From NCBI GenBank assembly GCA_964187785.1, contig OZ076409.1, forward strand, positions 2,046,001 through 2,110,000: DNA of 64,000 nucleotides, given 5' to 3'. The notes under the pieces are model-generated. The model was not told where the DNA came from and made no database searches. It was given only the letters and a program-made list of their open reading frames with translations. The position numbers and the translations under genes are program-made. Within the stretch, counting starts at the first letter, position 1, and every line of letters begins with the position of its first letter. This document shows positions 6,378 to 37,490 of this stretch, one piece after another. The stretch is from Amphiscolops sp. MND2022. Its lineage: Eukaryota.

Positions 6378-6655
6378 CCTGCCCAAAACTCTTTTCTGTT
6401 GCCCCCTATTTAATTTTTCCACCCCGGTAATGGTTATGCCTGGGAGGAAGTCTTAAACTATCCCATGAAATGATTACCTTGTAACGTATCGTTAAATAAC
6501 TCCTATCTTTAAGTTCTAGTTAGTTAGTTGAACTACAATTTAAACTTGTTGCGGTTCCCTTATGGAGCCATTTTTGCACCATTGTACTGGCCCTAAGATC
6601 TCCCCACAATGCACCTAGTAAGCCTAACGGTAATCCTTTTTAGACCTATGAAATA

Positions 6656-9009: not shown

Positions 9010-9053
9010 GCACCCTGGACACATGGGTCAAGGCGAGCAGTGATAATCGAGCG

Positions 9054-9644: not shown

Positions 9645-9931
9645 CCTGCCCAAAACTCTTTTCTGTTGCCCCTTATTTAATTTTTCCACCCCGGTAATGG
9701 TTATGCCTGGGAGGAAGTCTTAAACTATCCCATGAAATGATTACCTTGTAACGTATCGTTAAATAACTCCTATCTTTATGTTCTAGTTAGTTAGTTGAAC
9801 TACAATTTAAACTTGTTGCGGTTCCCTTATGGAGCCATGTTTGCACCATTGTAACTGGATGATGAGCCCTAAGCTCTCCCCACAATGCACCTAGTAAGCC
9901 TAACGGTAATCCTTTTTAGACCTATGAAATA

Positions 9932-10303
9932 ATGGTTTATTACCCCAACAACACGGTGCCTATTCCCACGACGGGACCTCATAGCAATAGGTCTCAAGAA
10001 TTGCCTGCGCGAGCGCAGAGGACTAATCAAGTCCAAAATGTAGAAGAGCGACTGAGGAACGGCCTTTCACCGTTAGCGGTAGCGGGCGTGGCCGCCCTGC
10101 TCACTCAACTAGACACGATGCAGACGCTGCCAGGTGTATCTGTGTCTCTGGTGACGGAAGTAGCTGGTTACCGTCGCACGCTAACCTGCCAAAACAATGC
10201 TTGGGATGGCCACGACTTAACGCATCAATTCCTGGATGAACGCTCTACCACGATGCTTGGGCCCAGCCAGGGCACGAGATTCGAGCAAGAAGCCTCCCTG
10301 TGA
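9932..10303 (+). CDS. 123-aa upstream part of the accessory ORF, separated from the 970-aa ORF only by an in-frame TGA
   Basis: ORF ends ...CTG TGA ATG GTG in all three copies. Confidence 0.5.
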   Translation: MVYYPNNTVPIPTTGPHSNRSQELPARAQRTNQVQNVEERLRNGLSPLAVAGVAALLTQLDTMQTLPGVSVSLVTEVAGYRRTLTCQNNAWDGHDLTHQFLDERSTTMLGPSQGTRFEQEASL

Positions 10304-15999: not shown

Positions 16000-18900
16000 A
16001 AAAGTGTCAGCGAGCGATTAAGCACTAACTAAAACAAGATGGAAAGCCAAATTCAAAAGCTCAATGTGCAATAGTTGAAACGAGAGAGATATGTATTGGC
16101 AATGAAATAATTGAAGGCTGCTCTCCGGTGGTAGAACAATTTCTCGTTGAAGCTTTCAAGAAGTGCCTCAGGAAGGGAGCGTTTCTAGGATGCCATAATT
16201 GTTTTAAAACTTTACGTTTTACAGAAAACTGAATTCAGTGATCCCGACACCTACCTTCCATTGTGTCCACTTAGTTCATTGAGAAAGATTTTCGAAAAGC
16301 TGTTATACAATCGGATAGTTGAATGTTCTGATTAAAACTATCTTTATCTTCAGTGCAGCTCGGCTTTGGTTCTAATCATTCATACGAGATGCAATCGACA
16401 AACAAAATGCGGGTCATGATTGTTTTGTTTTGATGTTAACTTTTGTTTGAAGTTCTTAGACCATTCTCAGTTCCTGAACAAACTATTTTGTTTTAATTTC
16501 TTGGACCATTCTCAGTTCCTGAACAAACTATTTTGTTTTAATTTCTTGGACCATTCTCAGTTCCTGAACAAACTATTTTGTTTTAATTTCTTGGACCATT
16601 CTCAGTTCCTGAACAAACTATTTTGTTTTAATTTCTTGGACCATTCTCAGTTCCTGAACAAACTATTTTGTTTTAATTTCTTGGACCATTCTCAGTTCCT
16701 GAACAAACTATTTTGTTTTAATTTCTTGGACCATTCTCAGTTCCTGAACAAACTATTTTGTTTTAATTTCTTGGACCATTCTCAGTTCCTGAACAAACTA
16801 TTTTGTTTTAATTTCTTGGACCATTCTCAATTCCTGAACAAACTATTTTGTTTTAATTTCTTGGACCATTCTCAGTTCCTGAACAAACTATTTTGTTTTA
16901 ATTTCTTGGACCATTCTCAGTTCCTGAACAAACTATTTTGTTTTAATTTCTTGGACCATTCTCAGTTCCTGAACAAACTATTTTGTTTTAATTTCTTGGA
17001 CCATTCTCAGTTCCTGAACAAACTATTTTGTTTTAATTTCTTGGACCATTCTCAGTTCCTGAACAAACTATTTTGTTTTAATTTCTTGGACCATTCTCAG
17101 TTCCTGAACAAACTATTTTGTTTTAATTTCTTGGACCATTCTCAGTTCCTGAACAAACTATTTTGTTTTAATTTCTTGGACCATTCTCAGTTCCTGAACA
17201 AACTATTTTGTTTTAATTTCTTGGACCATTCTCAGTTCCTGAACAAACTATTTTGTTTTAATTTCTTGGACCATTCTCAGTTCCTGAACAAACTATTTTG
17301 TTTTAATTTCTTGGACCATTCTCAGTTCCTGAACAAACTATTTTGTTTTAATTTCTTGGACCATTCTCAGTTCCTGAACAAACTATTTTGTTTTAATTTC
17401 TTGGACCATTCTCAGTTCCTGAACAAACTATTTTGTTTTAATTTCTTGGACCATTCTCAGTTCCTGAACAAACTATTTTGTTTTAATTTCTTGGACCATT
17501 CTCAGTTCCTGAACAAACTATTTTGTTTTAATTTCTTGGACCATTCTCAGTTCCTGAACAAACTATTTTGTTTTAATTTCTTGGACCATTCTCAGTTCCT
17601 GAACAAACTATTTTGTTTTAATTTCTTGGACCATTCTCAGTTCCTGAACAAACTATTTTGTTTTAATTTCTTGGACCATTCTCAGTTCCTGAACAAACTA
17701 TTTTGTTTTAATTTCTTGGACCATTCTCAGTTCCTGAACAAACTATTTTGTTTTAATTTCTTGGACCATTCTCAGTTCCTGAACAAACTATTTTGTTTTA
17801 ATTTCTTGGACCATTCTCAGTTCCTGAACAAACTATTTTGTTTTAATTTCTTGGACCATTCTCAGTTCCTGAACAAACTATTTTGTTTTAATTTCTTGGA
17901 CCATTCTCAGTTCCTGAACAAACTATTTTGTTTTAATTTCTTGGACCATTCTCAGTTCCTGAACAAACTATTTTGTTTTAATTTCTTGGACCATTCTCAG
18001 TTCCTGAACAAACTATTTTGTTTTAATTTCTTGGACCATTCTCAGTTCCTGAACAAACTATTTTGTTTTAATTTCTTGGACCATTTCCAGTTCCTGAACA
18101 AACTATTTTGTTTTAGTTTCTTGGACCATTCTCAGTTCCTGAACAAACTATTTTGTTTTAATTTCTTGGACCATTCTCAGTTCCTGAACAAACTATTTTG
18201 TTTTAATTTCTTGGACCATTCTCAGTTCCTGAACAAACTATTTTGTTTTAATTTCTTGGACCATTCTCAGTTCCTGAAGAAACTATTTTGTTTTAATTTC
18301 TTGGACCATTCTCAGTTCCTGAACAAACTATTTTGTTTTAATTTCTTGGACCATTCTCAGTTCCTGAACAAACTATTTTGTTTTAATTTCTTGGACCATT
18401 CTCAGTTCCTGAACAAACTATTTTGTTTTAATTTCTTGGACCATTCTCAGTTCCTGAACAAACTATTTTGTTTTAATTTCTTGGACCATTCTCAGTTCCT
18501 GAACAAACTATTTTGTTTTAATTTCTTGGACCATTCTCAGTTCCTGAACAAACTATTTTGTTTTAATTTCTTGGACCATTCTCAGTTCCTGAACAAACTA
18601 TTTTGTTTTAATTTCTTGGACCATTCTCAGTTCCTGAACAAACTATTTTGTTTTAATTTCTTGGACCATTCTCAGTTCCTGAACAAACTATTTTGTTTTA
18701 ATTTCTTGGACCATTCTCAGTTCCTGAACAAACTATTTTGTTTTAATTTCTTGGACCATTCTCAGTTCCTGAACAAACTATTTTGTTTTAATTTCTTGGA
18801 CCATTCTCAGTTCCTGAACAAACTATTTTGTTTTAATTTCTTGGACCATTCTCAGTTCCTGAACAAACTATTTTCTTTTAATTTCTTGGACCATTCTCAG

Positions 18901-20931
18901 TTCCTGAACAAACTATTTTGTTTTAATTTCTTGGACCATTCTCAGTTCCTGAACAAACTATTTTGTTTTAATTTCTTGGACCATTCTCAGTTCCTGAACA
19001 AACTATTTTGTTTTAATTTCTTGGACCATTCTCAGTTCCTGAACAAACTATTTTGTTTTAATTTCTTGGACCATTCTCAGTTCCTGAACAAACTATTTTG
19101 TTTTAATTTCTTGGACCATTCTCAGTTCCTGAACAAACTATTTTGTTTTAATTTCTTGGACCATTCTCAGTTCCTGAACAAACTATTTTGTTTTAATTTC
19201 TTGGACCATTCTCAGTTCCTGAACAAACTATTTTGTTTTAATTTCTTGGACCATTCTCAGTTCCTGAACAAACTATTTTGTTTTAATTTCTTGGACCATT
19301 CTCAGTTCCTGAACAAACTATTTTGTTTTAATTTCTTGGACCATTCTCAGTTCCTGAACAAACTATTTTGTTTTAATTTCTTGGACCATTCTCAGTTCCT
19401 GAACAAACTATTTTGTTTTAATTTCTTGGACCATTCTCAGTTCCTGAACAAACTATTTTGTTTTAATTTCTTGGACCATTCTCAGTTCCTGAACAAACTA
19501 TTTTGTTTTAATTTCTTGGACCATTCTCAGTTCCTGAACAAACTATTTTGTTTTAATTTCTTGGACCATTCTCAGTTCCTGAACAAACTATTTTGTTTTA
19601 ATTTCTTGGACCATTCTCAGTTCCTGAACAAACTATTTTGTTTTAATTTCTTGGACCATTCTCAGTTCCTGAACAAACTATTTTGTTTTAATTTCTTGGA
19701 CCATTCTCAGTTCCTGAACAAACTATTTTGTTTTAATTTCTTGGACCATTCTCAGTTCCTGAACAAACTATTTTGTTTTAATTTCTTGGACCATTCTCAG
19801 TTCCTGAACAAACTATTTTGTTTTAATTTCTTGGACCATTCTCAGTTCCTGAACAAACTATTTTGTTTTAATTTCTTGGACCATTCTCAGTTCCTGAACA
19901 AACTATTTTGTTTTAATTTCTTGGACCATTCTCAGTTCCTGAACAAACTATTTTGTTTTAATTTCTTGGACCATTCTCAGTTCCTGAACAAACTATTTTG
20001 TTTTAATTTCTTGGACCATTCTCAGTTCCTGAACAAACTATTTTGTTTTAATTTCTTGGACCATTCTCAGTTCCTGAACAAACTATTTTGTTTTAATTTC
20101 TTGGACCATTCTCAGTTCCTGAACAAACTATTTTGTTTTAATTTCTTGGACCATTCTCAGTTCCTGAACAAACTATTTTGTTTTAATTTCTTGGACCATT
20201 CTCAGTTCCTGAACAAACTATTTTGTTTTAATTTCTTGGACCATTCTCAGTTCCTGAACAAACTATTTTGTTTTAATTTCTTGGACCATTCTCAGTTCCT
20301 GAACAAACTATTTTGTTTTAATTTCTTGGACCATTCTCAGTTCCTGAACAAACTATTTTGTTTTAATTTCTTGGACCATTCTCAGTTCCTGAACAAACTA
20401 TTTTGTTTTATTTTCTTGGACCATTCTCAGTTCCTGAACAAACTGTTTTGTTTTAATTTCTTGGACCATTCTCAGTTCCTGAACAAACTATTTTGTTTTA
20501 ATTTCTTGGACCATTCTCAGTTCCTGAACAAACTATTTTGTTTTAATTTCTTGGACCATTCTCAGTTCCTGAACAAACTTCACATTTACGAGGAGCTGGT
20601 TTTATTCAGTTAATGTATCATCTAACCGAAACAACGCAATTTGTATTCGAAAAAAGAAAAGATCACAAAAAAACTTCTTGTTAGCATCGGCGTACCTGAA
20701 GATTCCATTTTCAGGACGTTCACATTTCTCAACCTATGTCCATTATATAAAGTATAGGCGATTTAAAATGATATAGATGATATGACAACTTGTCTTGTTT
20801 GCAACAAACTGGCCGTCACCTCTTCAAAAGTAAAACTTTTTCTTTTGGGCCGAAACCCCCCAGGGTTAGTTGAAAAAAGTGATCTCAACATTCCTGATAA
20901 ACAACACAAGTTCTTAGTGTTTTTTTGACAC
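16000..20931 (+). mobile_element. Highly decayed CR1/L2-type LINE RT relic, interrupted by the satellite and by element B; resumes at 37207
   Basis: Remnants KIFEKLLYNRI (~16285), a Q.GF.SNHS-like stretch (~16355), LDHSQ.LNKL and a GVP(Q)GSI.G-like stretch (~20690). The start coordinate is approximate. Confidence 0.65.
16441..20580. repeat. 45-bp tandem satellite, 92 copies
   Basis: Unit ttttgttttaatttcttggaccattctcagttcctgaacaaacta; 4140 bp / 45 = 92 copies. Only a few single-base variants. Confidence 0.99.
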
Positions 20932-23444
20932 TGTCACAGCCCGCTCCCGGTCTGGCTTGTGGTTGCAGACGACTGAAGATCGGGAGAGGTCACGGAGGCA
21001 ATCTGAGATTCCCCAGATCTTACTTCAACTGGTAACTTTAAAACCTTACCCTTAGAATAAACTGTGACTAAGAGCACGAAAACAAACGTCCAACTCACGA
21101 AAAGTTTAAACAAAAATGAGAACTGAAATCAAAATTGAAATAAGATGATTTCACGCACATCCGGTAGGACGTCCTTAGTGCGTCAAAATAGAAACATTCG
21201 CCACCTGAAAATTAAATTAAAACTCGCAGTGAAATAAAGACCATAGACCGATCTAAATAGAAATATACCCAAAACCACCGTTGAAAAAAGGACATTATCT
21301 GAATCTAAAATAGAAACTACATTGAGATGACAGCTTGAGTTATTCACTCCTTTTCTAAGAAAGGCAGCTTAATTGCACTTTGAACAGCAATTAGTGCGGA
21401 TTAGGACGTCGGTACTGCGCTAAGTAAACAAAATAAAGGATACATGTATATTAGATGTCGGTAAGAAGCAGACTTGAAAGTATATAGCGTGACGTCACCG
21501 TTTCGTCCACGCTCACTAGAGAACCATTCCAATTTACCGCCTATATTAGAGACACTACTTGAAATCATTCCAATTTTCCGCCATAGTGACGTCACGGTAT
21601 TGCCTTTCTCGGCGAGGACTAATTCTACTTCAAATTTACGTCCGCGTTACGTCCACTATGTTGGACCAGGCCTAATACTAATACGTACGTCCACGGTACG
21701 TCCAAATTCCATCAAGACGAGTTGTTTTAATCCACCCAGAAGTTATGATGAATATCAATCAAATTAAATTAGTGCTAGGAATGCGTTTAAAGTATTTGGT
21801 GTTCCAACAAAATAATTAAAAGGGAATTTGAAGTCCTATGCCACGTTTTCGTCAAATATTTCCTTTGCCGGATAAATTTTACTCCAAAATTTAAGTTGAA
21901 ATGGAAGTCCCAGTATAATGTAGGTGAAAGTCACAGTTTATGGGCATGACGAAAGTAAATCGATGATATTTTCATATTGGAATTATATTTTCATACATTT
22001 GTACTTTTGTACTGCATAAAGTGCGTGCTACAACCTTGTTGTTTAATTGGACGTCGGTACGTCGTCACCCCCTAATCAGAATGTGCATTATTTTAACCCT
22101 AATGTGCATGAATTAAGAGTAAATGTTTGTATTACATTTGTGCGTTCTGTAGTGAATGGAATCTGGTGTTAGAAGGTTTTGAACTCTTGCTTGTTCAGAG
22201 ATTCCATGAAGTGCCGTCCTCATACCGTCAGATGTTTTTGTTCAAGATTACTATTTCATGTACAAGTTAAAATCTGTTGACAGAGTATTATGCATATTTA
22301 CCAAATAAGCGCTAAAATGATATTAGACGCTATTTGTAAGTGAAGTATTAATAAATTTGGACAAAAGTCTGAATTAGACAACCTAGTCCATCAATCCACC
22401 AAACGTCAATGTGTCGTTGCTTTATTTTGTTAATCGTTAATCATTTAATTTGAAACTAATTTGAGATTGTTGCTAATTCTTTGAGCTTGTTTCTCCTTCC
22501 TCTTTAGCATCATTGGAAATTATAGGGCTGAAAACATTAGTCATAGCATTTTTCTCGAGCAAAATATCAAAATTCAGGCATTAGTTGTTCATGCCGGTGT
22601 CATCTCAGCGTCAATTTCCCGCGAACCAAAGCAGTAAAACAGGGAATCATTTCCGGTTTGACAGACTGAAGTAATATCTACTTCCTGCTTGGGAGGAAAC
22701 AAAAGGACGCCGAGCTGAAATAATATGATTACGGTTGATGACTAATGCTAGATTAGGTTTGCCGTGTCTTAAAATTTGACGGAATGTCAGCGCAAATTTG
22801 GGAACTTCGTGATTTTTTCATCGATAAAACAGGAAATGACTAATTGTTCGAAGGAAATTAGGGATTATGATCGTGATCAAATGATGCTAGGAGGGTATAA
22901 ATATGATAGGATTTGATGATTGAGGGACTCAGTCCTTAGTAATTGTACAATTCAGTCGAATTCTCAATTTCACTCTCACCTTATTCTACTTTTGTCAGAA
23001 AATATTTGAAAGAAATTCAATTCTTCAAATCCAAACTTTTCTACAAAATGTCTACAACAAGAAGCCAAAAAAGAAGAAATGATCAGCAAAGCACCAGTGA
23101 GAACGTAAGTGAAGGCTTGATTTCACCTATAGTGGTAGGAAATCCTTGTCCTTTGAACCAGGACGATGAGGTAGCGGGGCCTTCCAATCCAAAATCCCCC
23201 CGGATTGAGAATAGTCTCTTAGAAAGTTTGAGAGCCTCTTTGAAGGAAGAAATAACATCGGAAATTAAGAATCTTCTTATCGAATCCCAGAAGGAGATGT
23301 TAAAACTCTTGAAACCTGAAACAAGGGGAATCATTAGGGAAAATACCGAGGAAGAAGTAGAAGAGGAGACTAGAAACTTTTATACTCCCACAAAATCAGT
23401 GAGAATAAGTTCTACTCAAAACGACCCCATAATATGTCGTAACA
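20932..23444 (+). repeat. 5' LTR of element B (2513 bp)
   Basis: tgtcacagcc...gtcgtaaca, matching 34694-37206 with about 8 substitutions counted by eye. Confidence 0.97.
22896..22934 (+). promoter_or_regulatory. Putative LTR core promoter (TATA and Inr)
   Basis: TATAAA at 22896-22901 and TCAGTC at 22929-22934, about 115 nt upstream of the gag ATG. Confidence 0.55.
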
Positions 23445-24487
23445 TGGTGACAGGAGTCCTAACCGATTCCACAAACCAGCCGAAAAGAACGAAAGCCAGG
23501 TCTCAGAGCCAACCGCCGTCAAAAGAACGTCCAGTAGCAGCAAGGACCTTATTTGCAACAGATAAAAATGATGGCACTACTCTGCCCATGCCAAAAGCAC
23601 TCACGGCGTCACTCCCGACCTTCGATGGAAAGTCGGAAAAATTCGAGCTTTTCGAAGACCTTTTTCGCAATAATATCAAAATGTATCCACACCTTACGGA
23701 AATCCAAAAAATAAACTATTTCCACTCCCTCCTCAGAGGAGATGCCTTACAAGCATTTTGTAATATCGAAGACACGAAAAAGGATTCCCTTGATGAGATC
23801 ATGACGATTTTCAAGCGACGTTTCGGAGACTATTTGTCTATGGCCAAGGCAAGATGCGAATGGGATGAGCTCAAATTCGATCCCTCGAACCAAAAACTCC
23901 ACGAATTTCTAGATGTACTGCAAAAAACAGCCAAAGAAGCTTTTGGCTCTGAAGCCCAACAATTTATTGATAAGGCGATCTATGCAAAAATGCCAGACCA
24001 TGTAAAGAAAATATTAAATAGAGCGTACCTTGAAGACAAACCCTACAATGACATCGTACTGCATCTAGAAAGGGAAATGAGACTTAACGGCCTTGGGGCG
24101 CCAGATGAAGTAAACCTGGTACCACTAAACAAAGTAGAACCGGCCCCACCAAACACTGAGTCCAAACAAGCCGACAACACAACGCAAAACACCAAGAAAG
24201 GGTATTGTTTCTACTGCAACAAATTTGGACACTACAAAGCGGAGTGTAGGAAAATGAAAAGAGATAAATGGATGCAAACCAAGAAAAACAATGGCCAAAC
24301 CGGCAACAGTTCAGGAAAACCACTTAAATGCGATACCTGTGGAAAACCCCACAAAACAGAAAACTGTTGGAACGGAGCTAACTCGGCAAACGACCCGAGA
24401 CCTAAACGACATCACCAACAAGAAAGGAAACAAGATAACTCTGCACAACAGCTGACAAATCAAGACGCAGATGAATCAAAAAACTAG
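23048..24487 (+). CDS. gag: Gag (479 aa from the first ATG) with two CCHC zinc knuckles
   Basis: LPTFDGKSEKF capsid-like motif; knuckles CFYCNKFGHYKAEC and CDTCGKPHKTENC. The start codon lies inside the LTR. Confidence 0.93.
   Translation: MSTTRSQKRRNDQQSTSENVSEGLISPIVVGNPCPLNQDDEVAGPSNPKSPRIENSLLESLRASLKEEITSEIKNLLIESQKEMLKLLKPETRGIIRENTEEEVEEETRNFYTPTKSVRISSTQNDPIICRNMVTGVLTDSTNQPKRTKARSQSQPPSKERPVAARTLFATDKNDGTTLPMPKALTASLPTFDGKSEKFELFEDLFRNNIKMYPHLTEIQKINYFHSLLRGDALQAFCNIEDTKKDSLDEIMTIFKRRFGDYLSMAKARCEWDELKFDPSNQKLHEFLDVLQKTAKEAFGSEAQQFIDKAIYAKMPDHVKKILNRAYLEDKPYNDIVLHLEREMRLNGLGAPDEVNLVPLNKVEPAPPNTESKQADNTTQNTKKGYCFYCNKFGHYKAECRKMKRDKWMQTKKNNGQTGNSSGKPLKCDTCGKPHKTENCWNGANSANDPRPKRHHQQERKQDNSAQQLTNQDADESKN
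23445..23457 (+). other. Primer binding site, probably tRNA-Leu
   Basis: TGGTGACAGGAGT immediately follows the LTR end. It matches 12/13 to the complement of the typical animal tRNA-Leu(CAG) 3' end as recalled (TGGTGTCAGGAGT). Confidence 0.65.
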
Positions 24488-24533
24488 ATACGCCGCGCCT
24501 GCGATTCGGGGAAACCGTAGCCGCGAGGGCGTA
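24478..24533 (+). other. -1 ribosomal frameshift signal
   Basis: A AAA AAC slippery heptamer (24478-24484) precedes the gag TAG, followed by a hairpin closed by tacgcc/ggcgta (24489-24533). The -1 frame is open into pol. Confidence 0.88.
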
Positions 24534-27500
24534 CTCATCAACAGATCCCCCCATCACCTATACAAACGACTCAACAGAAGGGTGTGACGACACACCAACG
24601 GTAGATCGGCTAAGACGACAAGCACTTGCTTCTATAAAAAGACCCTATCCACAAACTGAACCAGCAGAAACCTACACTCACGACAAAGACTACAGGGACA
24701 ATCCTAAACAACAAGCAAATCGTCCCACCAGCTTACCCCCCATCAATAGAGAATTCTCTGCTACAAACCAGGTAGAACAAAATGAAAGCGCCTCCGACGA
24801 CCGCCCAGCGTCACAACAAAACGAAGGAGATAACCACGACTCCACCAAAACACTTCTACCCCCAGACAATTTTCCCATGTCACTTAACTCAATCAAGGAA
24901 TACGTAGCCGAAAAGGATGGAGAAGCATATATACCTCTCCACTCCACTATAGTCCTCAAGAGCAGAAGGAGAAAGCTGTACTTGCCACTAGAATTCGGTG
25001 AAATAACAATGGACGGACTTGTCGACTCAGGTGCGTTCATCAATGCCATGTCCTGGTCAGACTACAACGCAATCAAAATGAACAGTGATAGTTGTGTCAT
25101 AAAAGAATACCCTCAACCTCCCTTCAAGATTGAATGCGCAAACGCACAACTAGAACAACCAATAGCAACAGCGGACATCCAGTTCAATATTGGAACATAT
25201 ACCTTCACGGATACCTTCGTCATCCTATCGAAAACATCATTCCCCATCATAGGACTGAACTTCATGAGAAATCACCAAGCAGTAATCGACACTGCCAACG
25301 GAACCATCAATTTCCCGCACGTCGAAATGACGCTAGCCATGACGGACGAGATGAAAAAATGCAACCCGAAACCGCTCCAAATAATGGCGGAAGGAAATCA
25401 AACACTACCGCCCCAACAAACAACAACAGTGAACGCAATAGTAATAACCACAAACATGCATGACGTCACTGGTGCGGTACAACCACTACCACAATTTGAT
25501 GAAACAGCAACAATCATTGTTGCACCAGCTCTGGCGACAGCCCATAACAAAAGGCTCAACATCAGAATCGCCAATCTAACGGATTTCCCACATACAATAA
25601 AGAATCACACAAAACTGGCAGAACTACAAATCCTCAAACCTGAGGACACGAAACAAATCCGACCAGTTGACGCCGCCGCACTCAAATTGTTAGAAGACCC
25701 CGATGACACACACATGTACATCAACGAACTTATGAAATCAAATGAACACGAACAAAACGATGAAAACCTCTGGTTCCCCACACCCGAGAACCCAGGGAAC
25801 GAAGAGGAACATACGCCAATCCAACGTCGGATCTTGAAGGAAATCCGTGAACTCATCCAAAAGGAAAACTTGGATCCAACCAAAGACCCAGAATCAAGAC
25901 AAAAATTCCTTGACATGTTCCAGTGGGAAGGATCCCAAATCGAAGGTAATGATAGAGAACAACTCGAGCAAACAATAGTCGAATACAATGACATCTTTGC
26001 CCGCCATCGCCTTGACATCGGAATCAACAATAGCTTCAAAGTCAAATTAACTCCGAAAGACGACCGTCCTATTTACACGCAAAGTTTGCCGGTACCAATC
26101 AATTTGAAAGAAGACCTAACAGTCGAATTGGCGCTAATGCACAGGTACGGCATAATAACGACCCTACCATTTTCAAAGTATGCAAGCCCAATTTTCGCAC
26201 AGAGGAAACCAAATGGCAAATTGCGTCTACTTGTCGACCTGCGAAAAATAAACGCATTAATTTCAGACGATTACATCAACAATAACCACCCAGTCAGCAC
26301 CCTGTCAGATGCAGCCCAACATCTAGCTGGGAAAAAATTGTTTTGCAAACTAGACTGCTCACAGGCATATCATTGCCTACAGATGGCAGACCAAAGATCA
26401 ATCGAAATGCTAGCCTTCAACTTTGCAAGCAGAACGTTCGCATACAAACGCCTAGCACAAGGATTGAGCAGAGCCCTGTCGGCATTTTCAAGCTTCATGC
26501 GAGAATACTTGGATAAGGTAATCAAAGCTGATCAATGCGCACAGTACGTGGACGATATCGGGATAGCGGCCAATTCCGTGGCGCAACTGATACGCAACAT
26601 TCGAGCAGTTTTTGAATGCATCAGAAGGGCAGGACTCAAATTAACCATCGAAAAATGCCATTTCGGAGTAACCGAAGTCGAATTTCTTGGAAGAACGATC
26701 ACACCACAAGGAATCGCCCCGCAAGACCATAAAATCCAAAAATTCCTAGCAAACGTGAGATTTCCAAAATCCAAGAAACAAGTACAAAGATACATCGGTT
26801 TCGTCAATTATTATCGCAACTACATCCCGAGATTGTCTGAGAAATTGCTCGGATTCTATGAACTACTGAAAGCAGACAAGCAAATCAAGGTCACAGAAGA
26901 ACTACTTGACCATTACAAAGCTATCAACGCAGCATTGGCACAAGCTTGCGGCTTAGCACTCAAACAACCAATCACGGGACGACAGTACGTCCTAATGACG
27001 GACGCCAGCTTCCGAGCCTCTGGCTACGCCCTAATGATTGAGGAAGACAACGACAAAAACCTCAATTCGAAAAAGAAGACATTTGCACCAGTCGCATTCG
27101 GATCAAAGGTGTTCTCCCCGGCTCAAATCAAAATGTCAATTTACTGCAAGGAATTCCTAGCGATCTATCACGCCTTCCTTGAATACAGCCATATTCTATG
27201 GGAAACAACCCTACCAACCCTCGTGATGACCGACAACAGATCGGTAACCCGTTTCTTCCAAACAAAAGCAATCCCGCCCACTCTGTGGAACGCATGTGAT
27301 TACGTACTACAATTCAACTTCCACATAATGCACGTCGCGGGTACGCAAAACACGGCAGCCGATTTTTTGTCAAGAATAGATCTCAATCCCAAAGAAAGAG
27401 TTGAACTAAAAATCAGAGAGGATATTACTATCAAGCCCATTCAAGTGAATCTCCAATCAACGGACGTCGCAGACGAGGAACAACTTTTCTTCCTCCCAGA

Positions 27501-29043
27501 TGAAACAATTGAAACGGAAGAAGAAATTCTACTGCAGAAAGAGCAAGCTAGACAAAATGCACGCGACGAGGAGACGACAAAAATCAAAATAGCCATCAAA
27601 GAAACCACACCAATCCCAATAAACAAGGCATCTTATACCTTTGGGGCAATAAAGGAAGATGCACGTATTAGAGTCGAGCAAGACTCGAATTTGGTTTTCA
27701 AAGCAATCAAAAAGAAGTTGATATGTGAAGAATACGACAAACACCTTCTACAGACTGATCCGACTGCCAAGCGCCTCCTAATCCACGAAAACAGACTAAT
27801 AGTAAAAGATGGAGTACTAATGCGCAAATATTACGGGGAATGTGGTCAAGTCACTCACCATCAAATTCTAATCCCCGAACATTTAATCACAGAACTCTTG
27901 AAAGCAATTCATGGACAAATGGGGAAGCATCCAGGAATCACAAAAATGATACAAGAATGCCGATCAAAATACTACTACCCAGGATTAGCACAGAAGATTA
28001 GACAGTGGGTAATGCAATGTGAAGAATGCATCAAATACAAACGAATCAACAACAGCCAAATCCGACCAAAAATGATCAACAATACGGAACATGTCTTAGG
28101 ACCAGAAGATATCCTAGAAATAGACATATTGCCGAATTTACCAAACTCTGCGGGATACCAAAACATTGTCACGATGATTGATGTCTTTTCGCGTTATTTA
28201 TTTGCATATCCAACGCAGAATGTCACAGCGAAAACAATCGGACGATGCATTGTCGACGTTATGACAAGACATGCATACTTGCCAACACTAATCCTATCAG
28301 ACAAGGGCTCACAATTTCGATCAGAAGTCGTCACAGAAATAGCCCAAATACTCGAAATTCAAATCAGCCACGCATCTACGAAGCATGCACAAACAATCGG
28401 AATTCTGGAAAGAACGCACGCTTCAATCAAAACTGCCCTAAAAATATCAACGGGTGAACGACGCTCAATGTGGCACAAATATGTCCAAATCGCAGTAATG
28501 AATTACAATACAACATACCATGAAACTCTGGGCTGCGAACCATCTACAGTATTTCATGGACGTATACCTTACAACGTTCTCGATTTAAAATTAGGCATCA
28601 AGCCAAAGTGGAAAACCACCCCCCACTCGGATATAGCAGAACAACTCCAAAAACAAATAGACGAAGTGGGGGCGACGGCGAAAGACAACATCATGCTGTC
28701 CTATCTCAAATACAAAAAATACTACGACCGCAAAGCGACCGCAGCTCCCTTAAAAATCAATGACTACTGCTACATACTTAACCCGAAAGCCGACAATCAA
28801 TCGACAAAGTTTGCGTTTCAAGATTGCATCTGGACAGGACCGTATGTAGTGATCAAAGTGCTTTCGAACAACAACTACACAATACGAAAACTTGGCACAA
28901 GATATACACAAACACTACACAGAATTCGCATACGACCTTATGTGACGGAACAACGCTTGCCCGACGTCACAGTACGAGCCAATGATTACCTTCCTGACCC
29001 AGAAGTTAAAGTCTCACACAATGAATGGTATGCGGTATCATAG
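24484..29043 (+). CDS. pol: Pol: protease, reverse transcriptase, RNase H, integrase
   Basis: LVDSGA, YVDD, TDAS..., H-H-CEEC, IDIL/SDKGSQF/LERTH and WTGPYVV motifs. The frame is open from 24484. Confidence 0.97.
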   Translation, partial: LDTPRLRFGETVAARAYSSTDPPITYTNDSTEGCDDTPTVDRLRRQALASIKRPYPQTEPAETYTHDKDYRDNPKQQANRPTSLPPINREFSATNQVEQNESASDDRPASQQNEGDNHDSTKTLLPPDNFPMSLNSIKEYVAEKDGEAYIPLHSTIVLKSRRRKLYLPLEFGEITMDGLVDSGAFINAMSWSDYNAIKMNSDSCVIKEYPQPPFKIECANAQLEQPIATADIQFNIGTYTFTDTFVILSKTSFPIIGLNFMRNHQAVIDTANGTINFPHVEMTLAMTDEMKKCNPKPLQIMAEGNQTLPPQQTTTVNAIVITTNMHDVTGAVQPLPQFDETATIIVAPALATAHNKRLNIRIANLTDFPHTIKNHTKLAELQILKPEDTKQIRPVDAAALKLLEDPDDTHMYINELMKSNEHEQNDENLWFPTPENPGNEEEHTPIQRRILKEIRELIQKENLDPTKDPESRQKFLDMFQWEGSQIEGNDREQLEQTIVEYNDIFARHRLDIGINNSFKVKLTPKDDRPIYTQSLPVPINLKEDLTVELALMHRYGIITTLPFSKYASPIFAQRKPNGKLRLLVDLRKINALISDDYINNNHPVSTLSDAAQHLAGKKLFCKLDCSQAYHCLQMADQRSIEMLAFNFASRTFAYKRLAQGLSRALSAFSSFMREYLDKVIKADQCAQYVDDIGIAANSVAQLIRNIRAVFECIRRAGLKLTIEKCHFGVTEVEFLGRTITPQGIAPQDHKIQKFLANVRFPKSKKQVQRYIGFVNYYRNYIPRLSEKLLGFYELLKADKQIKVTEELLDHYKAINAALAQACGLALKQPITGRQYVLMTDASFRASGYALMIEEDNDKNLNSKKKTFAPVAFGSKVFSPAQIKMSIYCKEFLAIYHAFLEYSHILWETTLPTLVMTDNRSVTRFFQTKAIPPTLWNACDYVLQFNFHIMHVAGTQNTAADFLSRIDLNPKERVELKIREDITIKPIQVNLQSTDVADEEQLFFLPDETIETEEEILLQKEQARQNARDEETTKIKIAIKETTPIPINKASYTFGAIKEDARIRVEQDSNLVFKAIKKKLICEEYDKHLLQTDPTAKRLLIHENRLIVKDGVLMRKYYGECGQVTHHQILIPEHLITELLKAIHGQMGKHPGITKMIQECRSKYYYPGLAQKIRQWVMQCEECIKYKRINNSQIRPKMINNTEHVLGPEDILEIDILPNLPNSAGYQNIVTMIDVFSRYLFAYPTQNVTAKTIGRCIVDVMTRHAYLPTLILSDKGSQFRSEVVTEIAQILEIQISHASTKHAQTIGILERTHASIKTALKISTGERRSMWHKYVQIAVMNYNTTYHETLGCEPSTVFHGRIPYNVLDLKLGIKPKWKTTPHSDIAEQLQKQIDEVGATAKDNIMLSYLKYKKYYDRKATAAPLKINDYCYILNPKADNQSTKFAFQDCIWTGPYVVIKVLSNNNYTIRKLGTRYTQTLHRIRIRPYVTEQRLPDVTVRANDYLPDPEVKVSHNEWYAVS

Positions 29044-29614: not shown

Positions 29615-32600
29615 TCAATTCCTTTTCGACGAAGACGAACTGCCAGACTGTTTCTTTGATCTCTTCTTGCCACCTTTTGATGAAGAAGTGGCACCACCAG
29701 ATGATCCAGAACCTTGCAATGACGGACGCTTGACTGGCGCTGCATCACCTTTTGAAGCGACAGAACTACTACGAGCAGAGTGACCACCAGACGACTCGAA
29801 ACTTCCACCAACACGACTAACGACACGCTGATTAGCAGTCCGGAAACGCTGATAAGAAGCCTCCTTCTTCCGTTCCAAGTGAGCGCTGAACAGCTCCGAA
29901 TAACGTTGCACAAAAGCGACACGATCACTCACACATATACGCGCCCACGGGTCGAAATCAGGAGAAGAGGACATAAACTCGCGAGCACCGGAGATGGCAT
30001 CCCGAATACACTCCATAGTACGAGGAGTGAACAGTGTCTGCACTTTGAAATGAGAGGCACAAACATAACTCTGCACTCCACGCAGGCAGGACGACACCAC
30101 AGACTCTGGCACAACACAGTCCTTCAGCGAGAAAACCACAGCAGGATAAGTACTAGTGGGGCGCCGAATAACTAAATAACAGAGCTTCAAGATTCGACAC
30201 AAACTCTTTCGCGACAAGAAACTGTAGTCTGAAAGCAGATATGTCATCACGTCAGCAATACTCTCGGCACTTCTGTCTGATCCAAGATGTCGCAAACGGG
30301 CGTCCACCACAAACGTAGTAAACTCTTCTGCACCAGCTTTTGCTTCCTCAGGACTCAAGGCTCCGCTTTTCTCCAGAACCTGGACCAACTTGCTAAAGAG
30401 CCGGAAAATGTATCGATCGTCTCCTTCAAGCAGCAACTCAGGGCAGAAACAGTAGGCACCCTGTAGGAAATCCGAGGAGACAAGATTATTCTCTAGGCGG
30501 ACGTCCACCAAGCGGTCCATAAACTCCCGACACCGATTTCGGAACTCTTTTAGCTCACCAGTCGTCCCACGCTGCAATTCCTCTCCAAACTCATAATTCA
30601 GAAGAAAATCAGCAGTATCGATCTTCTTGAAAGCTTTGATTTTCTCGGGATCCATGTAGGCAGCCCAATCGTTCAACTCAGGCAAATCAGCTAATACACG
30701 AGTCCGTGACAAAAGGCAGTACACAAACTGACAGACCTCCATATAGCAATGAAAGCCGTAGTCCAATCGCCCAGATAGCTGTTTTTTGAAAGTACAACGA
30801 TCTAAACAACAAACACAAATTATACCAACCCAAGGCGCCTAACATACGACCACAAGACGACGGTCACTTACAGAGGTCTAACACATGGACCAAGAGCCCC
30901 AATCGTAAGCGGTTCGTGTTGTCGCAATACACCTGACTGTCTGTGCCTCGCATCTAAAACACACCATACAACTGCAATAAAACAGGTTTCTTCTTCACCT
31001 TTTTTCTCGCCCTAAATTCTCCCCTTTTATTCGGAACAGCTAACCACACCCAATCAAACTCAAGCTGAGTAAAAGAAATGGAAAAACAAATACCACAGCA
31101 ATTCTACTAACCATATCAGTCTCAGTTTTGATGTGACGGGGACCAGTGTAGCGAACAAACTCGCGCACAGATTTCCACACTGGTATCAATTCAGCAGCGG
31201 CTTCTCGAAGATCGCAGAAGGACACTCGACCGGCGACGATGCAGCGACGGAGCACGAGAGTATCCTCCAACCAGGGTTCCTGCAGAGCCCCCCTCAGGCG
31301 CAACATCAAATAGTCAAGCATGGAAGTGACCTCCATCATGCCCAACACCTCTTGATGAGCCTGCCGATAGCAACTGATGAACACCTCTTCAGAAAAATGC
31401 CGACTGAGGATGAACTGGTGGCCATCGTCTCGGTTGTCGCTCAACACACGTAGCAAAGAAGGACTAGCCCCTTCTATCGACAAGGGCAGTTGGCCACCGG
31501 GAATGCTACCCAAGACACGAGACAGTGAACCCAATTCCGCTTGCGGGACGCTCTGACCTAGAGGCTGCACATCGACACATACTTCCAGGCAACCGTCTTC
31601 CGCCCATGTCCGCACCAGACAATGCTTGCCATCAACGCGATCCACAAAACTAACGCTGTAACTCTTGAAGTCGGCAATGCGAGCGACCAACAAGCGCAGC
31701 ACTCGAGGAAAGACACCCTGACACAATAGCGACTGAAACATAACAATATCCAGCACTCAAGAATACTATATACCATTTCTCGACGACACCTAGACGACAG
31801 GCAATAAGGGCCACAAACGGAAAAAAAAAGAGAAAAGAAAAAGGAAAAAAAAGAACAGAATCACGCAAAATATCTTACCAAAGACTCCCCGCGGCTCCAA
31901 GTCAGGCTATACAAAGGGTTTTCCGTAGCCAGCGTTGCCCGGAAATGGCCCCACAGTTTCCGCAACAAGAGGTAGTCGCCACCACTTCGCAGCATCTCGA
32001 TGAGGCAATTTACCATTGTCATTAATGGCACACTTGAATCTACGCGCGTGCAAGACGGCAGTAAATCCTCTGGAAAACTGAAACCTTCTGGCTTCTCCTT
32101 ACATGGGCGTGACAGGTACTCTTGCACTTGGGCGTCGCTCAACTCCATCGGGTCCAGCAGCTTGTTGTACACTTTCAAGCCATGATGGACACGATACGTC
32201 ACGTCAAGAGGCCAGTGTTTGTCACTTGAAAAATGACGTGTAAGTTCACGCACCCCCTTCGTCGCAATGGAGACGTCTCGTTGGCAAAGAGTGCAGAAAA
32301 ACGCATTCTCAATCCCCGAACTTGACCCACTAACGAACAGCTCGAACACAGGGTGGTCCTTGACCATACTGCGGCGGAGTCGATTCCGCGAACTTACGAC
32401 CCGTGTCCGTCGTCGAGAAGGGCTAGCCTGTTCGAGACTCGTTTCCACACGTGCCACCAACTCCTCAAACTCTGCAAAAACAATGAAGCACGCAATAAAC
32501 ACAAATGAAAACTCGGACACCCAAAAAACACAACACTATAAAATGGCATGCTCAAAAGGCTTCTTTGTGACAACCAAATACCGCAAATGACAGTAATATT

Positions 32601-33585
32601 AAACTAACTGGCAACGAAAGGCTCCACAGTACGTGTCTCCAATTCGGACGCCACTGCCTCGCCGAACAATGCAGCTTGCTGAGAGGTGTACAAATCAGCA
32701 CCAACAGCCGCCTCTTCATCGTCACCACTCTCAACTCGCAAAGTTTGAGACTGTGCAACTGTTGATAACGTCACAGTCCGACGCCGCTTGCCAGAAGCAC
32801 CAGAGGGTTTAGACGACGACCCTACAAAAACACGAAATCTTTACCTAATAGCCTGAAACACACACCAACCTACGACAGACTTAGATGATCAATAATGCCA
32901 AATTCAAAAAAAAGAGAGAAAGAGGAAAGGGCAAATGGAAATAACAACTAGAAAAAGAAAAGAGAAAGGAATACCCACCCTGAACATTCTCCCGAGAAGA
33001 CTCCAGTTTGCTAAATGTCTCGGCGAAATCAGGAAGAAACCGGGTGAATCGCGGAGAGGTCGTTGCACTCACAACCTTCTCTGTTGCTTGCTTCCTTTTT
33101 TCCCCGGGGGGGCCAGCCTCCTCACCTTCGCGAGCAGAACCAACAGGATGCCCACTCAAAGTTCCCAAGAGCGCAGAAAGTGGAACATCTAATTCCTCCT
33201 GAGAAGAAGGGAGATCAGGGACACCAAGAGACGACGCTACAGCAGCGTCACCAGAGATTCCGGGTCCAGTGGCACCAGAAACAGTCGGAGGAGCGTCAGG
33301 TGGTTCACCAACTACAGTAGATGGCCCTGGGCCAGACACTAAAACATATTCCCATCACCGTCGCGACAAGAAAATCTAAGCTGTGGAAATACACAATGCA
33401 AAAAGGCCAATTTGCAAAAGTATAATTCACAAAAGCTTAAAGGAACAGGGAATGGTGAACTTACCAGCAACAGGAGGGACAGCCGAACGATCGGCGTCAC
33501 TTTCTTGGACGTCTCCCTCAGAGAACAGATACTGAGTATCATTGCCGCTTTGCACCCCGGAGTCGATCCGACGAGACGAAGCCAT
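29615..33585 (-). CDS. Antisense 7-exon gene, ~1050 aa, degenerate hAT-transposase-like protein with BED-type Zn finger
   Basis: Coding exons 33585-33465, 33338-32979, 32821-32633, 32471-31879, 31732-31112, 30953-30872 and 30801-29615. All six introns are GT-AG with matching phases (1,1,1,0,0,1). Total 3153 nt with no internal stop. Zn finger AFFCTLCQRDVSIATKGVRELTRHFSSDKH. Confidence 0.8.
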
Positions 33586-33635
33586 TTCAAAGCAAGAAAT
33601 CTGAAACAAAGCATGAAATGAAGACAACAATCAAA

Positions 33636-34000
33636 AAATGAAGTCATCATAACGGTGACAAAACCTAAAAGTTGGTTAATCACCAACGAAGCTGACGCCG
33701 GCATAACGTCGGCACTATAGATCGATTGAAATATCGACGAAAATGACGTCGGCATAACGTCGAAAAAAAGGTTATGAGGGTTGAAAAATTAATCCTATAA
33801 TTTACAATGACGTCATCATAACGGTGACAAAACAAAAAGTTAGCTAAGCTAACGAAATTGACGTCAGCATAACGTTGACAAACTTGGCCAAGCGGATTAA
33901 TTCAATTCGCAGCCAATAAAAAACGACGCTGGCACAGCGTCAACACCTGAAGATTAAAAAGGATTAAAACGATTGTTTAACCAATCAGAATGGAGGGATT
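33636..34000. promoter_or_regulatory. Putative internal bidirectional promoter
   Basis: TGACGTCA at 33808 and 33859, TGACGTC at 33744, CCAAT at 33913 and 33981. A ~78-bp imperfect duplication lies here, between two divergent ORFs. Confidence 0.5.
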
Positions 34001-34098: not shown

Positions 34099-34797
34099 AT
34101 GAATAGTCTACTGGATATTTACGAATTGATCGACATCTCGTCGTCAAGTGAAGAAGAGGGTGAGATCACGAGGGCTTCTACACCGCTACCTAGAGTCAAC
34201 AAAGAATACCCTAGAATAATTGTTGAAATAATGAATTCGTCTGCGGAAGCTACCGCAGATGAGGAAGAATTCCTCGACCTCTCTCTGGACTCTCTGGAAG
34301 CTGAATGCAAAAGGATGAAACTCAGCACGAGCTTCGAAACTGTGGAATCAGGTCAATACCCACAATCGGAAAGTCCCGAAGAAGAAGTAATGGCCGACTC
34401 TCCAGAGAGCCCTGACGAAAGCTTGTCATCTGATATATTTGTTGTTGGACCCTCGGCAGACGATAAAGAATCGACAACGAGCAGTAAAGTAGCAGAATAT
34501 CTCGAAAAAGTGCACCAGGAAGACGCCTCTTCTTACTTCAACACCCCGCCGGGAACGCCAAGGATGATAAACTTCTTGCAGCCAAGTCCTTTGAACGATT
34601 TGGAGAAGAGAGTACAGCCAGTCACCACTACTCTGACAATTGCCTCGCAACTCAGAGCCCCGGGCAAAGTCAATCTTCCTACAGGAGCGGCCCTGTCACA
34701 GCCCGCTCCCGGTCTGGCTTGTGGTTGCAGACGACTGAAGATCGGGAGAGGTCACGGAGGCAATCTGAGATTCCCCAGATCTTACTTCAACTGGTAA
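34099..34797 (+). CDS. 232-aa acidic Ser-rich accessory ORF extending 104 nt into the 3' LTR
   Basis: ATG in AAGATG context and an open frame with D/E/S-rich composition. No family recognised. Confidence 0.55.
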   Translation: MNSLLDIYELIDISSSSEEEGEITRASTPLPRVNKEYPRIIVEIMNSSAEATADEEEFLDLSLDSLEAECKRMKLSTSFETVESGQYPQSESPEEEVMADSPESPDESLSSDIFVVGPSADDKESTTSSKVAEYLEKVHQEDASSYFNTPPGTPRMINFLQPSPLNDLEKRVQPVTTTLTIASQLRAPGKVNLPTGAALSQPAPGLACGCRRLKIGRGHGGNLRFPRSYFNW

Positions 34798-37206
34798 CTT
34801 TAAAACCTTACCCTTAGAATAAACTGTGACTAAGAACACGAAAACAAACGTCCAACTCACGAAAAGTTTAAACAAAAATGAGAACTGAAATCAAAATTGA
34901 AATAAGATGATTTCACGCACATCCGGTAGGACGTCCTTAGTGCGTCAAAATAGAAACATTCGCCACCTGAAAATTAAATTAAAACTCGCAGTGAAATAAA
35001 GACCATAGACCGATCTAAAAAGAAATATACCCAAAACCACCGTTGAAAAAAGGACATTATCTGAATCTAAAATAGAAACTACATTGAGATGACACATTGA
35101 GTTATTCACTCCTTTTCTAAGAAAGGCAGCTTAATTGCACTTTGAACAGCAATTAGTGCGGATTAGGACGTCGGTACTGCGCTAAGTAAACAAAATAAAG
35201 GATACATGTATATTAGATGTCGGTAAGAAGCAGACTTGAAAGTATATAGCGTGACGTCACCGTTTCGTCCACGCTCACTAGAGAACCATTCCAATTTACC
35301 GCCTATATTAGAGACACTACTTGAAATCATTCCAATTTTCCGCCATAGTGACGTCACGGTATTGCCTTTCTCGGCGAGGACTAATTCTACTTCAAATTTA
35401 CGTCCGCGTTACGTCCACTATGTTGGACCAGGCCTAATACTAATACGTACGTCCACGGTACGTCCAAATTCCATCAAGACGAGTTGTTTTAATCCACCCA
35501 GAAGTTATGATGAATATCAATCAAATTAAATTAGTGCTAGGAATGCGTTTAAAGTATTTGGTGTTCCAACAAAATAATTAAAAGGGAATTTGAAGTCCTA
35601 TGCCACGTTTTCGTCAAATATTTCCTTTGCCGGATAAATTTTACTCCAAAATTTAAGTTGAAATGGAAGTCCCAGTATAATGTAGGTGAAAGTCACAGTT
35701 TATGGGCATGACGAAAGTAAATCGATGATATTTTCATATTGGAAATATATTTTCATACATTTGTACTTTTGTACTGCATAAAGTGCGTGCTACAACCTTG
35801 TTGTTTAATTGGACGTCGGTACGTCGTCACCCCCTAATCAGAATGTGCATTATTTTAACCCTAATGTGCATGAATTAAGAGTAAATGTTTGTGTTACATT
35901 TTTGCGTTCTGTAGTGAATGGAATCTGGTGTTAGAAGGTTTTGAACTCTTGCTTGTTCAGAGATTCCATGAAGTGCCGTCCTCATACCGTCAGATGTTTT
36001 TGTTCAAGATTACTATTTCATGTACAAGTTAAAATCTGTTGACAGAGTATTATGCATATTTACCAAATAAGCGCTAAAATGATATTAGACGCTATTTGTA
36101 AGTGAAGTATTAATAAATTTGGACAAAAGTCTGAATTAGACAACCTAGTCCATCAATCCACCAAACGTCAATGTGTCGTTGCTTTATTTTGTTAATCGTT
36201 AATCATTTAATTTGAAACTAATTTGAGATTGTTGCTAATTCTTTGAGCTTGTTTCTCCTTCCTCTTTAGCATCATTGGAAATTATAGGGCTGAAAACATT
36301 AGTCATAGCATTTTTCTCGAACAAAATATCAAAATTCAGGCATTAGTTGTTCATGCCGGTGTCATCTCAGCGTCAATTTCCCGCGAACCAAAGCAGTAAA
36401 ACAGGGAATCATTTCCGGTTTGACAGACTGAAGTAATATCTACTTCCTGCTTGGGAGGAAACAAAAGGACGCCGAGCTGAAATAATATGATTACGGTTGA
36501 TGACTAATGCTAGATTAGGTTTGCCGTGTCTTAAAATTTGACGGAATGTCAGCGCAAATTTGGGAACTTCGTGATTTTTTCATCGATAAAACAGGAAATG
36601 ACTAATTGTTCGAAGGAAATTAGGGATTATGATCGTGATCAAATGATGCTAGGAGGGTATAAATATGATAGGATTTGATGATTGAGGGACTCAGTCCTTA
36701 GTAATTGTACAATTCAGTCGAATTCTCAATTTCACTCTCACCTTATTCTACTTTTGTCAGAAAATATTTGAAAGAAATTCAATTCTTCAAATCCAAACTT
36801 TTCTACAAAATGTCTACAACAAGAAGCCAAAAAAGAAGAAATGATCAGCAAAGCACCAGTGAGAACGTAAGTGAAGGCTTGATTTCACCTATAGTGGTAG
36901 GAAATCCTTGTCCTTTGAACCAGGACGATGAGGTAGCGGGGCCTTCCAATCCAAAATCCCCCCGGATTGAGAATAGTCTCTTAGAAAGTTTGAGAGCCTC
37001 TTTGAAGGAAGAAATAACATCGGAAATTAAGAATCTTCTTATCGAATCCCAGAAGGAGATGTTAAAACTCTTGAAACCTGAAACAAGGGGAATCATTAGG
37101 GAAAATACCGAGGAAGAAGTAGAAGAGGAGACTAGAAACTTTTATACTCCCACAAAATCAGTGAGAATAAGTTCTACTCAAAACGACCCCATAATATGTC
37201 GTAACA
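34694..37206 (+). repeat. 3' LTR of element B (2513 bp)
   Basis: Copy of 20932-23444, followed by the TSD GACAC. Confidence 0.97.
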
Positions 37207-37490
37207 GACACTCAGTTCATTTTTGGCAAATCTGCTACGTATCAAAAAATCTTTGAATCGATCCGACGGACTGAATCAATATGCATTACCCAATTTAACG
37301 TCTTTGAATTATTCGTGAAATAAATTAATCTATTTGTCCCAATGATGCCTGACTGGCTAATGCCTGTCATAGCATGATTTACACGTTAGACCACAGCAGG
37401 CCAGTTGCCGTACCCAGAATTATACTTTTAGAATGAATTTTTTTGTTATGTTTGAAAGTTTAATAAATTTCATTCAAAGTCAAAAAATTT
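37207..37490 (+). mobile_element. Probable continuation and 3' end of the LINE relic
   Basis: Rejoining the flanks gives gtgtttttttgacactcagttcattttt, resembling the LG(V)..D..L.F motif. An AATAAA and an A-rich end occur at ~37462-37487. Confidence 0.4.

Follow-up and report, generated by a model that had tools for sequence, protein, structure and literature searches.

What is a gene split by six introns doing on the minus strand of a retrotransposon, and from what kind of protein does its product descend? The question is raised by a 64-kb stretch of a 1.07-Gb eukaryotic assembly (G000:C1:2046001-2110000; hereafter the window), in which a complete, young Ty3/Gypsy long terminal repeat (LTR) retrotransposon of 16.3 kb bears an antisense gene in the interval from pol to the 3' LTR. 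The explanation that best accounts for our data, and which we consider probable, is that this is an integral accessory gene of the Gypsy element, recruited from a DNA transposase that no longer cuts DNA; its product would be a descendant of a hAT-type DNA transposase, recognisable by fold alone.

The gene model was obtained by joining minus-strand stop-to-stop open reading frames (ORFs) through GT-AG introns into one frame. It runs from 33585 to 29615 in 7 exons and six GT-AG introns, whose acceptors are all pyrimidine-rich, and the predicted splicing yields a coding sequence (CDS) of 3177 nt with the stop codon, or 1058 aa, with zero internal stops. Its parts are given below in the order of transcription; counts refer to 16 genomic copies, the window included, and dN/dS is the ratio of nonsynonymous to synonymous divergence.

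33465-33585, minus strand: exon 1 with the start codon (ATG 33585-33583, here in 16/16 copies)
33339-33464, minus strand: intron 1, 126 nt, GT-AG
32979-33338, minus strand: exon 2, aa 41-160, Pro/Ser/Gly-rich, length-variable (359-486 nt among copies), without an in-frame ATG; dN/dS 0.3-0.6
32822-32978, minus strand: intron 2, 157 nt, GT-AG
32609-32821, minus strand: exon 3, aa 161-231
32472-32608, minus strand: intron 3, 137 nt, GT-AG
31879-32471, minus strand: exon 4, aa 232-429, with the C-x2-C-x16-H-x5-H zinc finger and the conserved LRSGG...LR.LW motif
31733-31878, minus strand: intron 4, 146 nt, GT-AG
31112-31732, minus strand: exon 5, aa 430-636, aligned to beta1-beta5 of the RNase-H-like core in the model of the homologue P0130 (see below), with YSVSFVD and SIEGAS
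30954-31111, minus strand: intron 5, 158 nt, GT-AG
30872-30953, minus strand: exon 6, a mini-exon of 82 nt in 16/16 copies, aa 637-663, with a third-position wobble pattern; dN/dS 0-0.05
30802-30871, minus strand: intron 6, 70 nt, GT-AG
29615-30801, minus strand: exon 7, aa 664-1058 including the stop, helical domain and basic Ser-rich tail; core dN/dS 0.06-0.08

A sequence-only reading of this DNA had proposed a stop-free antisense gene of seven exons and six GT-AG introns with a CDS of 3153 nt (~1050 aa). We recovered the same structure but a CDS 24 nt longer, a difference that probably arises at one junction or at the start. The motifs quoted in that reading are found in the spliced protein as well (the CTLC...H.....H finger, YSVSFVDRVDG, LSIEGAS, FRNRCREF and LCRILKLCYLV). 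Exon 6 and the true acceptor of exon 7, at 30801 and not at the ORF start (30838), were revealed only when copies were compared; this acceptor, TTGTTTAG, is at the same position in 16/16 copies.

The comparison set consisted of the window and 15 diverged copies from the same genome, with exon 7 proteins 66-95% identical, and whole cassettes were aligned. GT-AG is kept in 91/96 introns, the five others being in L013, L014 (two), L024 and L025, and in the alignment donor and acceptor dinucleotides fall in the same columns across copies, as do the pyrimidine tracts. Exons 1, 3, 4, 5 and 6 (121, 213, 593, 621 and 82 nt) are constant in length except for single-base indels and for an exon 1 that is 3-9 nt shorter in some subfamilies; exon 2 differs by multiples of 3 in most copies. 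Intron lengths, by contrast, drift freely (intron 2, for example, is 111-179 nt). Since the splice signals line up across 15 diverged copies, the junction model does not depend on a convenient choice of GT and AG. Between cassette types, dN/dS over the whole CDS is in the purifying range, 0.05-0.15 in the 18/21 pairs with estimable dS, with 0.00-0.12 in the structured core (exons 4-7 core) and 0.2-0.6 in the disordered exon 2 and the basic C-terminal tail. The dS itself runs from 0.18 to >4, is at least 1 in all but one of these 18 pairs and is saturated in the other 3/21. Comparison of introns and of dN/dS among copies, both suggested by the sequence-only reading, has thus come out in favour of its gene. 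When the genome was queried with exon 7, 8090 first-look candidates were returned and, among 102 scored, 79 were without a stop (69-100% identity). Judged by these sequence comparisons, the antisense gene is evidently kept under selection in very many copies. A reading of the minus-strand frames as chance ORFs was rejected on the conserved GT-AG and the fixed exon lengths beside freely varying introns.

We searched for relatives beyond these copies with an exon 7 profile (alignment A1) against 1.84 billion representative proteins and found 587 representative clusters at E<=1e-3, while an exon 7 search for longer homologous proteins returned none at E<=0.001. One of the profile relatives, P0130, is encoded by a single ORF on a contig of 4 kb; its 890 aa align with residues 263-971 of the spliced window protein at 27% identity over 725 aa (E 2e-72). 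The alignment is unbroken at junctions 4/5, 5/6 and 6/7, and these splice junctions are thereby independently supported. Its further relatives number 24 (526-887 aa), the 17 best of which cover at least 90% of the queried region. Within the same genome as the window, P0130 as query gave 11,115 first-look candidates, and 28/51 of those scored are without a stop. They include a second Gypsy clade on other chromosomes (L026-L031), where an intronless homologue of 870-910 aa lies tail-to-tail with pol at 6/6 loci and the last 260 residues of pol are only 57% identical to those of the window element. Two distant Gypsy clades hence agree in where the antisense gene lies, although it has six introns in one of them and none in the other. 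Presence of the segment in sister copies and related families, which the sequence-only reading had made a test of its proposal, is borne out at the same place by 15/15 diverged copies and 6/6 members of the second clade.

Sequence profiles gave no lead to the ancestry of the protein. In Pfam, the six antisense ORF pieces of the window had no significant match, and none to a hAT or BED family, and 10 homologues had no match; a profile search of PDB sequences returned one irrelevant match (E 9.3), and exon 7 in the ESM Atlas gave a best score of 0.76 and no lead. We therefore turn to structure, for which P0130 was folded with a 43-row alignment (A2) of 18 relatives (627-887 aa), six relatives of exon 7 length and exon translations of the window and five loci. 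The model (mean predicted local distance difference test score, pLDDT, 80.2; 522 residues >=90) begins with a small finger region and a helical domain, continues with three long antiparallel strands and a helix-strand-helix, and ends in ~340 helical residues. Its ten best Foldseek matches in the PDB are all to the Hermes hAT transposase (E 2.3e-5 to 1.5e-3, prob 1.00), and the next entry has E 0.12. The model has the Hermes-like arrangement in which a large alpha-helical insertion domain splits the RNase-H-like core. Identity in the structural alignments is 10-12% and the root-mean-square deviation (rmsd) 5.1-5.6 A; they extend to Hermes residue 609, near the C-terminus, and for the dimerisation domain PF05699 there is no Pfam match in the window pieces or the 43 members (E<=10). 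The window protein is assigned to hAT through its clear homology to P0130, the protein actually modelled. The derivation from a hAT-like transposase proposed in the sequence-only reading is thereby supported as far as the fold of a homologue goes; matches to the zf-BED and Dimer_Tnp_hAT profiles are absent.

The finger, C-x2-C-x16-H-x5-H, is conserved in both Gypsy clades, as is the LRSGG...LR.LW motif near it; it has no Pfam zf-BED match, and its spacing is one that we take to be compatible with BED. The catalytic core has fared differently. Hermes cuts DNA with D180, D248 and E572, but in the 43-row alignment no acidic column is conserved family-wide in P0130 270-360 (the RNase-H-like sheet) or 690-730, and the family as a whole shares no DDE triad. 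Where beta1 ends, the window clade (six A2 sequences) has D/E and other members have S, C, E, R, K, Q or A; after beta4 the window clade has E (SIEGAS), and R, L, E, V, Q, H or G occur elsewhere. The claim that the catalytic motifs are altered agrees with this lack of a family-wide acidic residue in the RNase-H-like core. With no acidic column shared in these ranges, catalysis is, we conclude, not what unites the family as a whole.

Several observations weigh against a recruited, non-cutting hAT transposase encoded by a working spliced gene. There is no sequence-level link of the gene family to hAT: Pfam searches of the 43 aligned A2 members at E<=10 gave none to zf-BED or Dimer_Tnp_hAT, only scattered single-member matches with E 0.03 or worse. 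The whole spliced ORF is intact in only 5/16 sampled copies, one of which (L014) has two GT-GG introns; one stop is present in 3/16 copies and frameshifts in 8/16. Neither AATAAA nor ATTAAA occurs from the antisense stop to the pol stop, and the 500 bp upstream of the antisense gene contain no TATA. Lastly, the catalytic positions were assigned from secondary structure and from aligned ranges instead of a residue-level superposition, and with D/E and E retained, residual catalysis may persist in the window clade.

How, then, do other explanations compare? If the gene were a nested or fossil hAT DNA transposon, carried passively with a frame still open through youth, its transposase fold (as in the P0130 model) would be expected, and nested insertions are common in repeat-rich genomes. 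Youth is however excluded as the cause of the open frame, since cassette dS is at least 1 to saturated and dN/dS yet 0.05-0.15. The gene moreover has an unchanged position and direction in a second Gypsy clade, with a pol of only 57% identity, its splice signals are conserved, and neither terminal inverted repeats (TIRs) nor a target-site duplication (TSD) were found around it: the flanking zones share four 11-mer inverted matches when one mismatch is tolerated, where 20 shuffles averaged 3.05, and in the best inverted pairs the 8-bp flanks are unlike, so that no 8-bp TSD surrounds the gene. With inverted matches at chance level and unlike flanks, the absence of TIRs and TSD noted from sequence holds, and so does the view of the gene as integral cargo, given that it lies between pol and a further reading frame, ORF3 (described below), in 15/15 diverged copies. 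A nested DNA transposon was rejected on the missing TIRs and TSD, the old dS and the position shared by two clades, and we regard it as highly improbable. An active transposase or nuclease, in which the variant acidic set of the window clade cuts or joins DNA, for example to aid integration or to excise the element, has in its favour the retained Hermes-like fold with its insertion domain, the D/E at the end of beta1 and the E after beta4, in an EG[A/T/S/D/V]S motif that resembles the DGAS block of hAT. It is nonetheless distinctly unlikely: the same columns hold K/R/S/Q/A/L/V in much of the membership of the intronless clade, a clade that is equally constrained and abundant, acidic columns shared by the whole family are lacking in both P0130 ranges, there are no TIRs or 8-bp TSD to serve as a substrate, and the element has an rve integrase of its own.

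An ancestry in hAT would also be compatible with a transduced host gene, that is, a domesticated, intron-bearing, hAT-derived gene copied from genomic DNA. In that case the element would have hijacked a host function, and descent from hAT would be older than the capture. Taking up a gene from genomic DNA would account for six spliceosomal introns more readily than their gain within an element, and hAT-derived host genes without DDE, such as the ZBED genes and DAYSLEEPER, are widespread. The sister clade, in the same genome and with the gene at the same position, is however intronless, and introns were therefore either gained in the element or lost there; furthermore, the 99 database relatives found with the exon 7 profile and the 25 found with P0130 are all unnamed multi-copy sequences and none is annotated as a host gene, stand-alone copies not having been systematically sought. 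We consider such an origin unlikely. More improbable still is that the match to Hermes reflects a generic RNase-H-like fold or convergence, with the ancestor in another DDE superfamily that has no solved structure or not a transposase at all, a view to which the identity of only 10-12%, the rmsd of 5.1-5.6 A and the lack of any sequence profile in support of hAT lend some weight, and which has to contend with ten best structural matches that are all Hermes.

In the explanation that we prefer, a gene with its own start codon and six spliceosomal introns would thus belong to the element as an accessory gene on the strand opposite to gag and pol. The genomic RNA of the element would be the plus-strand transcript, in which these introns are antisense and read CT...AC; they would therefore stay unspliced, be reverse-transcribed and be copied at each retrotransposition, the same logic by which antisense-intron reporter cassettes work. 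Transcription of the gene would proceed towards pol from near 33586-33900 or from further upstream, followed by splicing and translation. The 1058-aa product is predicted to comprise, in order, a disordered variable N-terminus, a C2H2 (BED-like) finger, a conserved helical N-domain, an RNase-H-like core into which, as in Hermes, a large helical segment is inserted, and a basic tail. It is read as a recruited transposase that does not cut because the family has no common acidic triad and there are no TIRs. We infer expression, splicing, loss of catalysis, DNA binding and role from these features. Most probably the product would be a nuclear, sequence-binding zinc-finger accessory factor of the element, which would either drive or modulate its transcription or tether the integration complex to chromatin; to regulation or tethering through DNA binding in particular we give somewhat less than even chances.

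The carrier itself is an autonomous, recently inserted element. Self-BLAST of the window revealed direct repeats, 20931-23444 and 34693-37206, of 99.68% identity, and refinement of their ends gave two LTRs with TG...CA ends (20932-23444 and 34694-37206) and 8 mismatches in 2513 bp. Its features are:

20927-20931, no strand: left TSD copy, GACAC (5 bp), the same pentamer as at 37207-37211
20932-23444, plus strand: 5' LTR, 2513 bp, TG...CA, 8 mismatches to the 3' LTR
23048-24487, plus strand: gag, with its ATG inside the 5' LTR; Pfam DUF1759 (E 1.5e-9) and a weak zf-CCHC
24475-29043, plus strand: pol (protease, reverse transcriptase, RNase H, integrase), a stop-to-stop ORF in another frame than gag, with a 13-nt gag overlap
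34694-37206, plus strand: 3' LTR, from self-BLAST and end refinement
37207-37211, no strand: right TSD copy, GACAC, matching the left copy

Along pol, Pfam places RVT_1 at 577-742, RT_RNaseH at 836-942, Integrase_H2C2 at 1133-1189 and rve at 1210-1302. Two TG...CA LTRs, a short TSD and the order of gag before a pol that includes reverse transcriptase (RT), RNase H and integrase make it a Ty3/Gypsy element, and the near-identical LTRs, the 5-bp TSD and the open gag and pol are consistent with the young Gypsy element seen in the sequence-only reading. The gag start and its first ~130 codons lie within the 5' LTR (23048-23444), so the same coding start is present again in the 3' LTR. A query of the genome with the LTR end gave 40 scored matches among 1036 first-look candidates; many are paired ~13.7 kb apart and hence mark full-length copies of equal size.

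Gene and carrier differ in age. Nucleotide identity of the window element to the 15 copies is 77-100% in pol (88-100% in 12/15) and, for most copies, 76-99% over most of the LTR, as against only 54-87% in 14/15 copies for the cassette (about 29300 to 33300-33700). In L020, pol dS is 0.016 and cassette dS saturated; the respective values are 0.25 and 1.02 in L012, and 0.28 and 1.40 in L014. With a dS of 0.016-0.56 for the backbone (pol/LTR) and >1 for the cassette, the gene cassette is far older than its backbone, and the elements are therefore mosaics, in which recombination brings old cassettes onto a young backbone. Two further parts of the element are:

34099-34797, plus strand: ORF3, 233 aa, acidic, Ser-rich, extending ~105 bp into the 3' LTR; a second variable module, with no Pfam match
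33586-33900, minus strand: conserved stretch 5' of the antisense ATG, candidate promoter or 5' untranslated region, 85-98% identical in most copies (their coding cassettes 60-80%)

ORF3 is open in 7/7 copies tested and falls into at least three types of old divergence, whose pairwise dN/dS is 0.12-0.20 and whose distribution among copies is independent of the type of antisense cassette. In most copies the upstream stretch, exon 1 and intron 1 surpass the coding cassette in conservation, which would fit a cis-acting role for the upstream stretch. Part of it (33586-33720) holds a conserved inverted repeat, GTTGGTGATTAACCAAC, and a GTCACCGTTATGATGAC motif; TTTCAG, 20 nt before the antisense ATG, is missing from just one of the 16 copies and might serve as acceptor for an additional non-coding exon on the 5' side. 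A broader scenario, which we put forward as a speculation more doubtful than not, is that a whole Ty3/Gypsy lineage adopted a catalytically degenerate hAT transposase as a fourth gene, whose sequence-specific DNA binding would serve the choice of integration sites or the activation or protection of its own transcription. At least six cassette types (dS >1) and at least three ORF3 types would have been shuffled onto the younger backbone and kept by selection for diversity, for instance in binding specificities or in escape from host repressors, and the introns of one clade would have been gained or kept because they are antisense.

Antisense extra ORFs have been known in Gypsy elements for decades. 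Compared with hAT transposons such as Hermes, the gene described here encodes a protein alike in fold, but without detected sequence similarity, a family-wide DDE or associated TIRs and 8-bp TSD, and it lies antisense inside an LTR retrotransposon, split by six introns in the window clade. Host genes of the ZBED family and DAYSLEEPER also combine a BED-type finger with a hAT core without a working triad and act as DNA-binding regulators; those are single or low-copy host genes, whereas the present gene resides in a mobile element with 8090 and 11,115 first-look candidates in the two queries. Closer in position are the plant elements Retand/Tat, Grande (gene23) and RIRE2, for which two papers describe antisense ORFs (aORFs) between pol and the 3' LTR, often with Transposase_28 (PF04195), shared by the majority of a family's copies, not clearly similar to other proteins, suspected of nuclear or DNA-binding regulatory roles and described there as of unknown origin and function (PMC11963269, PMC7264820); the introduction of a third restates the same on antisense ORFs (PMC8220671). 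As with the plant aORFs, the region that codes antisense from the 3' LTR side towards pol is conserved here, in 15/15 copies and 6/6 members of the second clade. Unlike them, it has no PF04195 match at E<=1 in the six antisense ORF pieces, and it has a hAT-like fold and seven exons. The RT neighbours of the carrier in the Atlas are fungal, arthropod and chordate, not plant, and together with the DUF1759 in gag they indicate that the carrier is probably not of the Retand/Tat-type plant lineage. HBZ, which is spliced and transcribed from the 3' side of the provirus, is likewise a minus-strand accessory protein of a retroelement, but as a protein it is unrelated to the present one. The complex retrovirus with this antisense gene is HTLV-1 (human T-cell leukaemia virus type 1), as noted in PMC11963269. 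Searches of a full-text collection that excludes subscription journals and Repbase reports, judged by titles and the openings of abstracts, turned up no paper on a hAT-fold or multi-exon antisense gene in a Gypsy element.

If our explanation is right, the origin of one such antisense Gypsy gene can be named, by fold, as a hAT-type DNA transposase, and DNA binding via the conserved finger becomes a testable hypothesis. It would be a case of one transposon class domesticating the gene of another, instead of the host doing so, with the gene persisting in very many copies and in two Gypsy clades, in one of which six introns survive through their orientation. The age contrast between cassette and backbone makes these elements a natural setting in which to study how retroelements recombine and evolve by modules.

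The window has other repeats as well. A tandem array at 16306-20500, ending ~400 bp before the 5' LTR, consists of at least 92 register-shifted copies of an AT-rich 45-bp unit that are ~99% identical, and GC-rich (51-56%) tandem or segmental repeats of ~3.3-3.5 kb, 98-99% identical, extend over 1915-12819. On the other side of the element, two pairs of direct repeats (39151-39467/43667-43989, 85% identical, and 52779-53589/55915-56725, 98.5%) may be LTRs of other elements.

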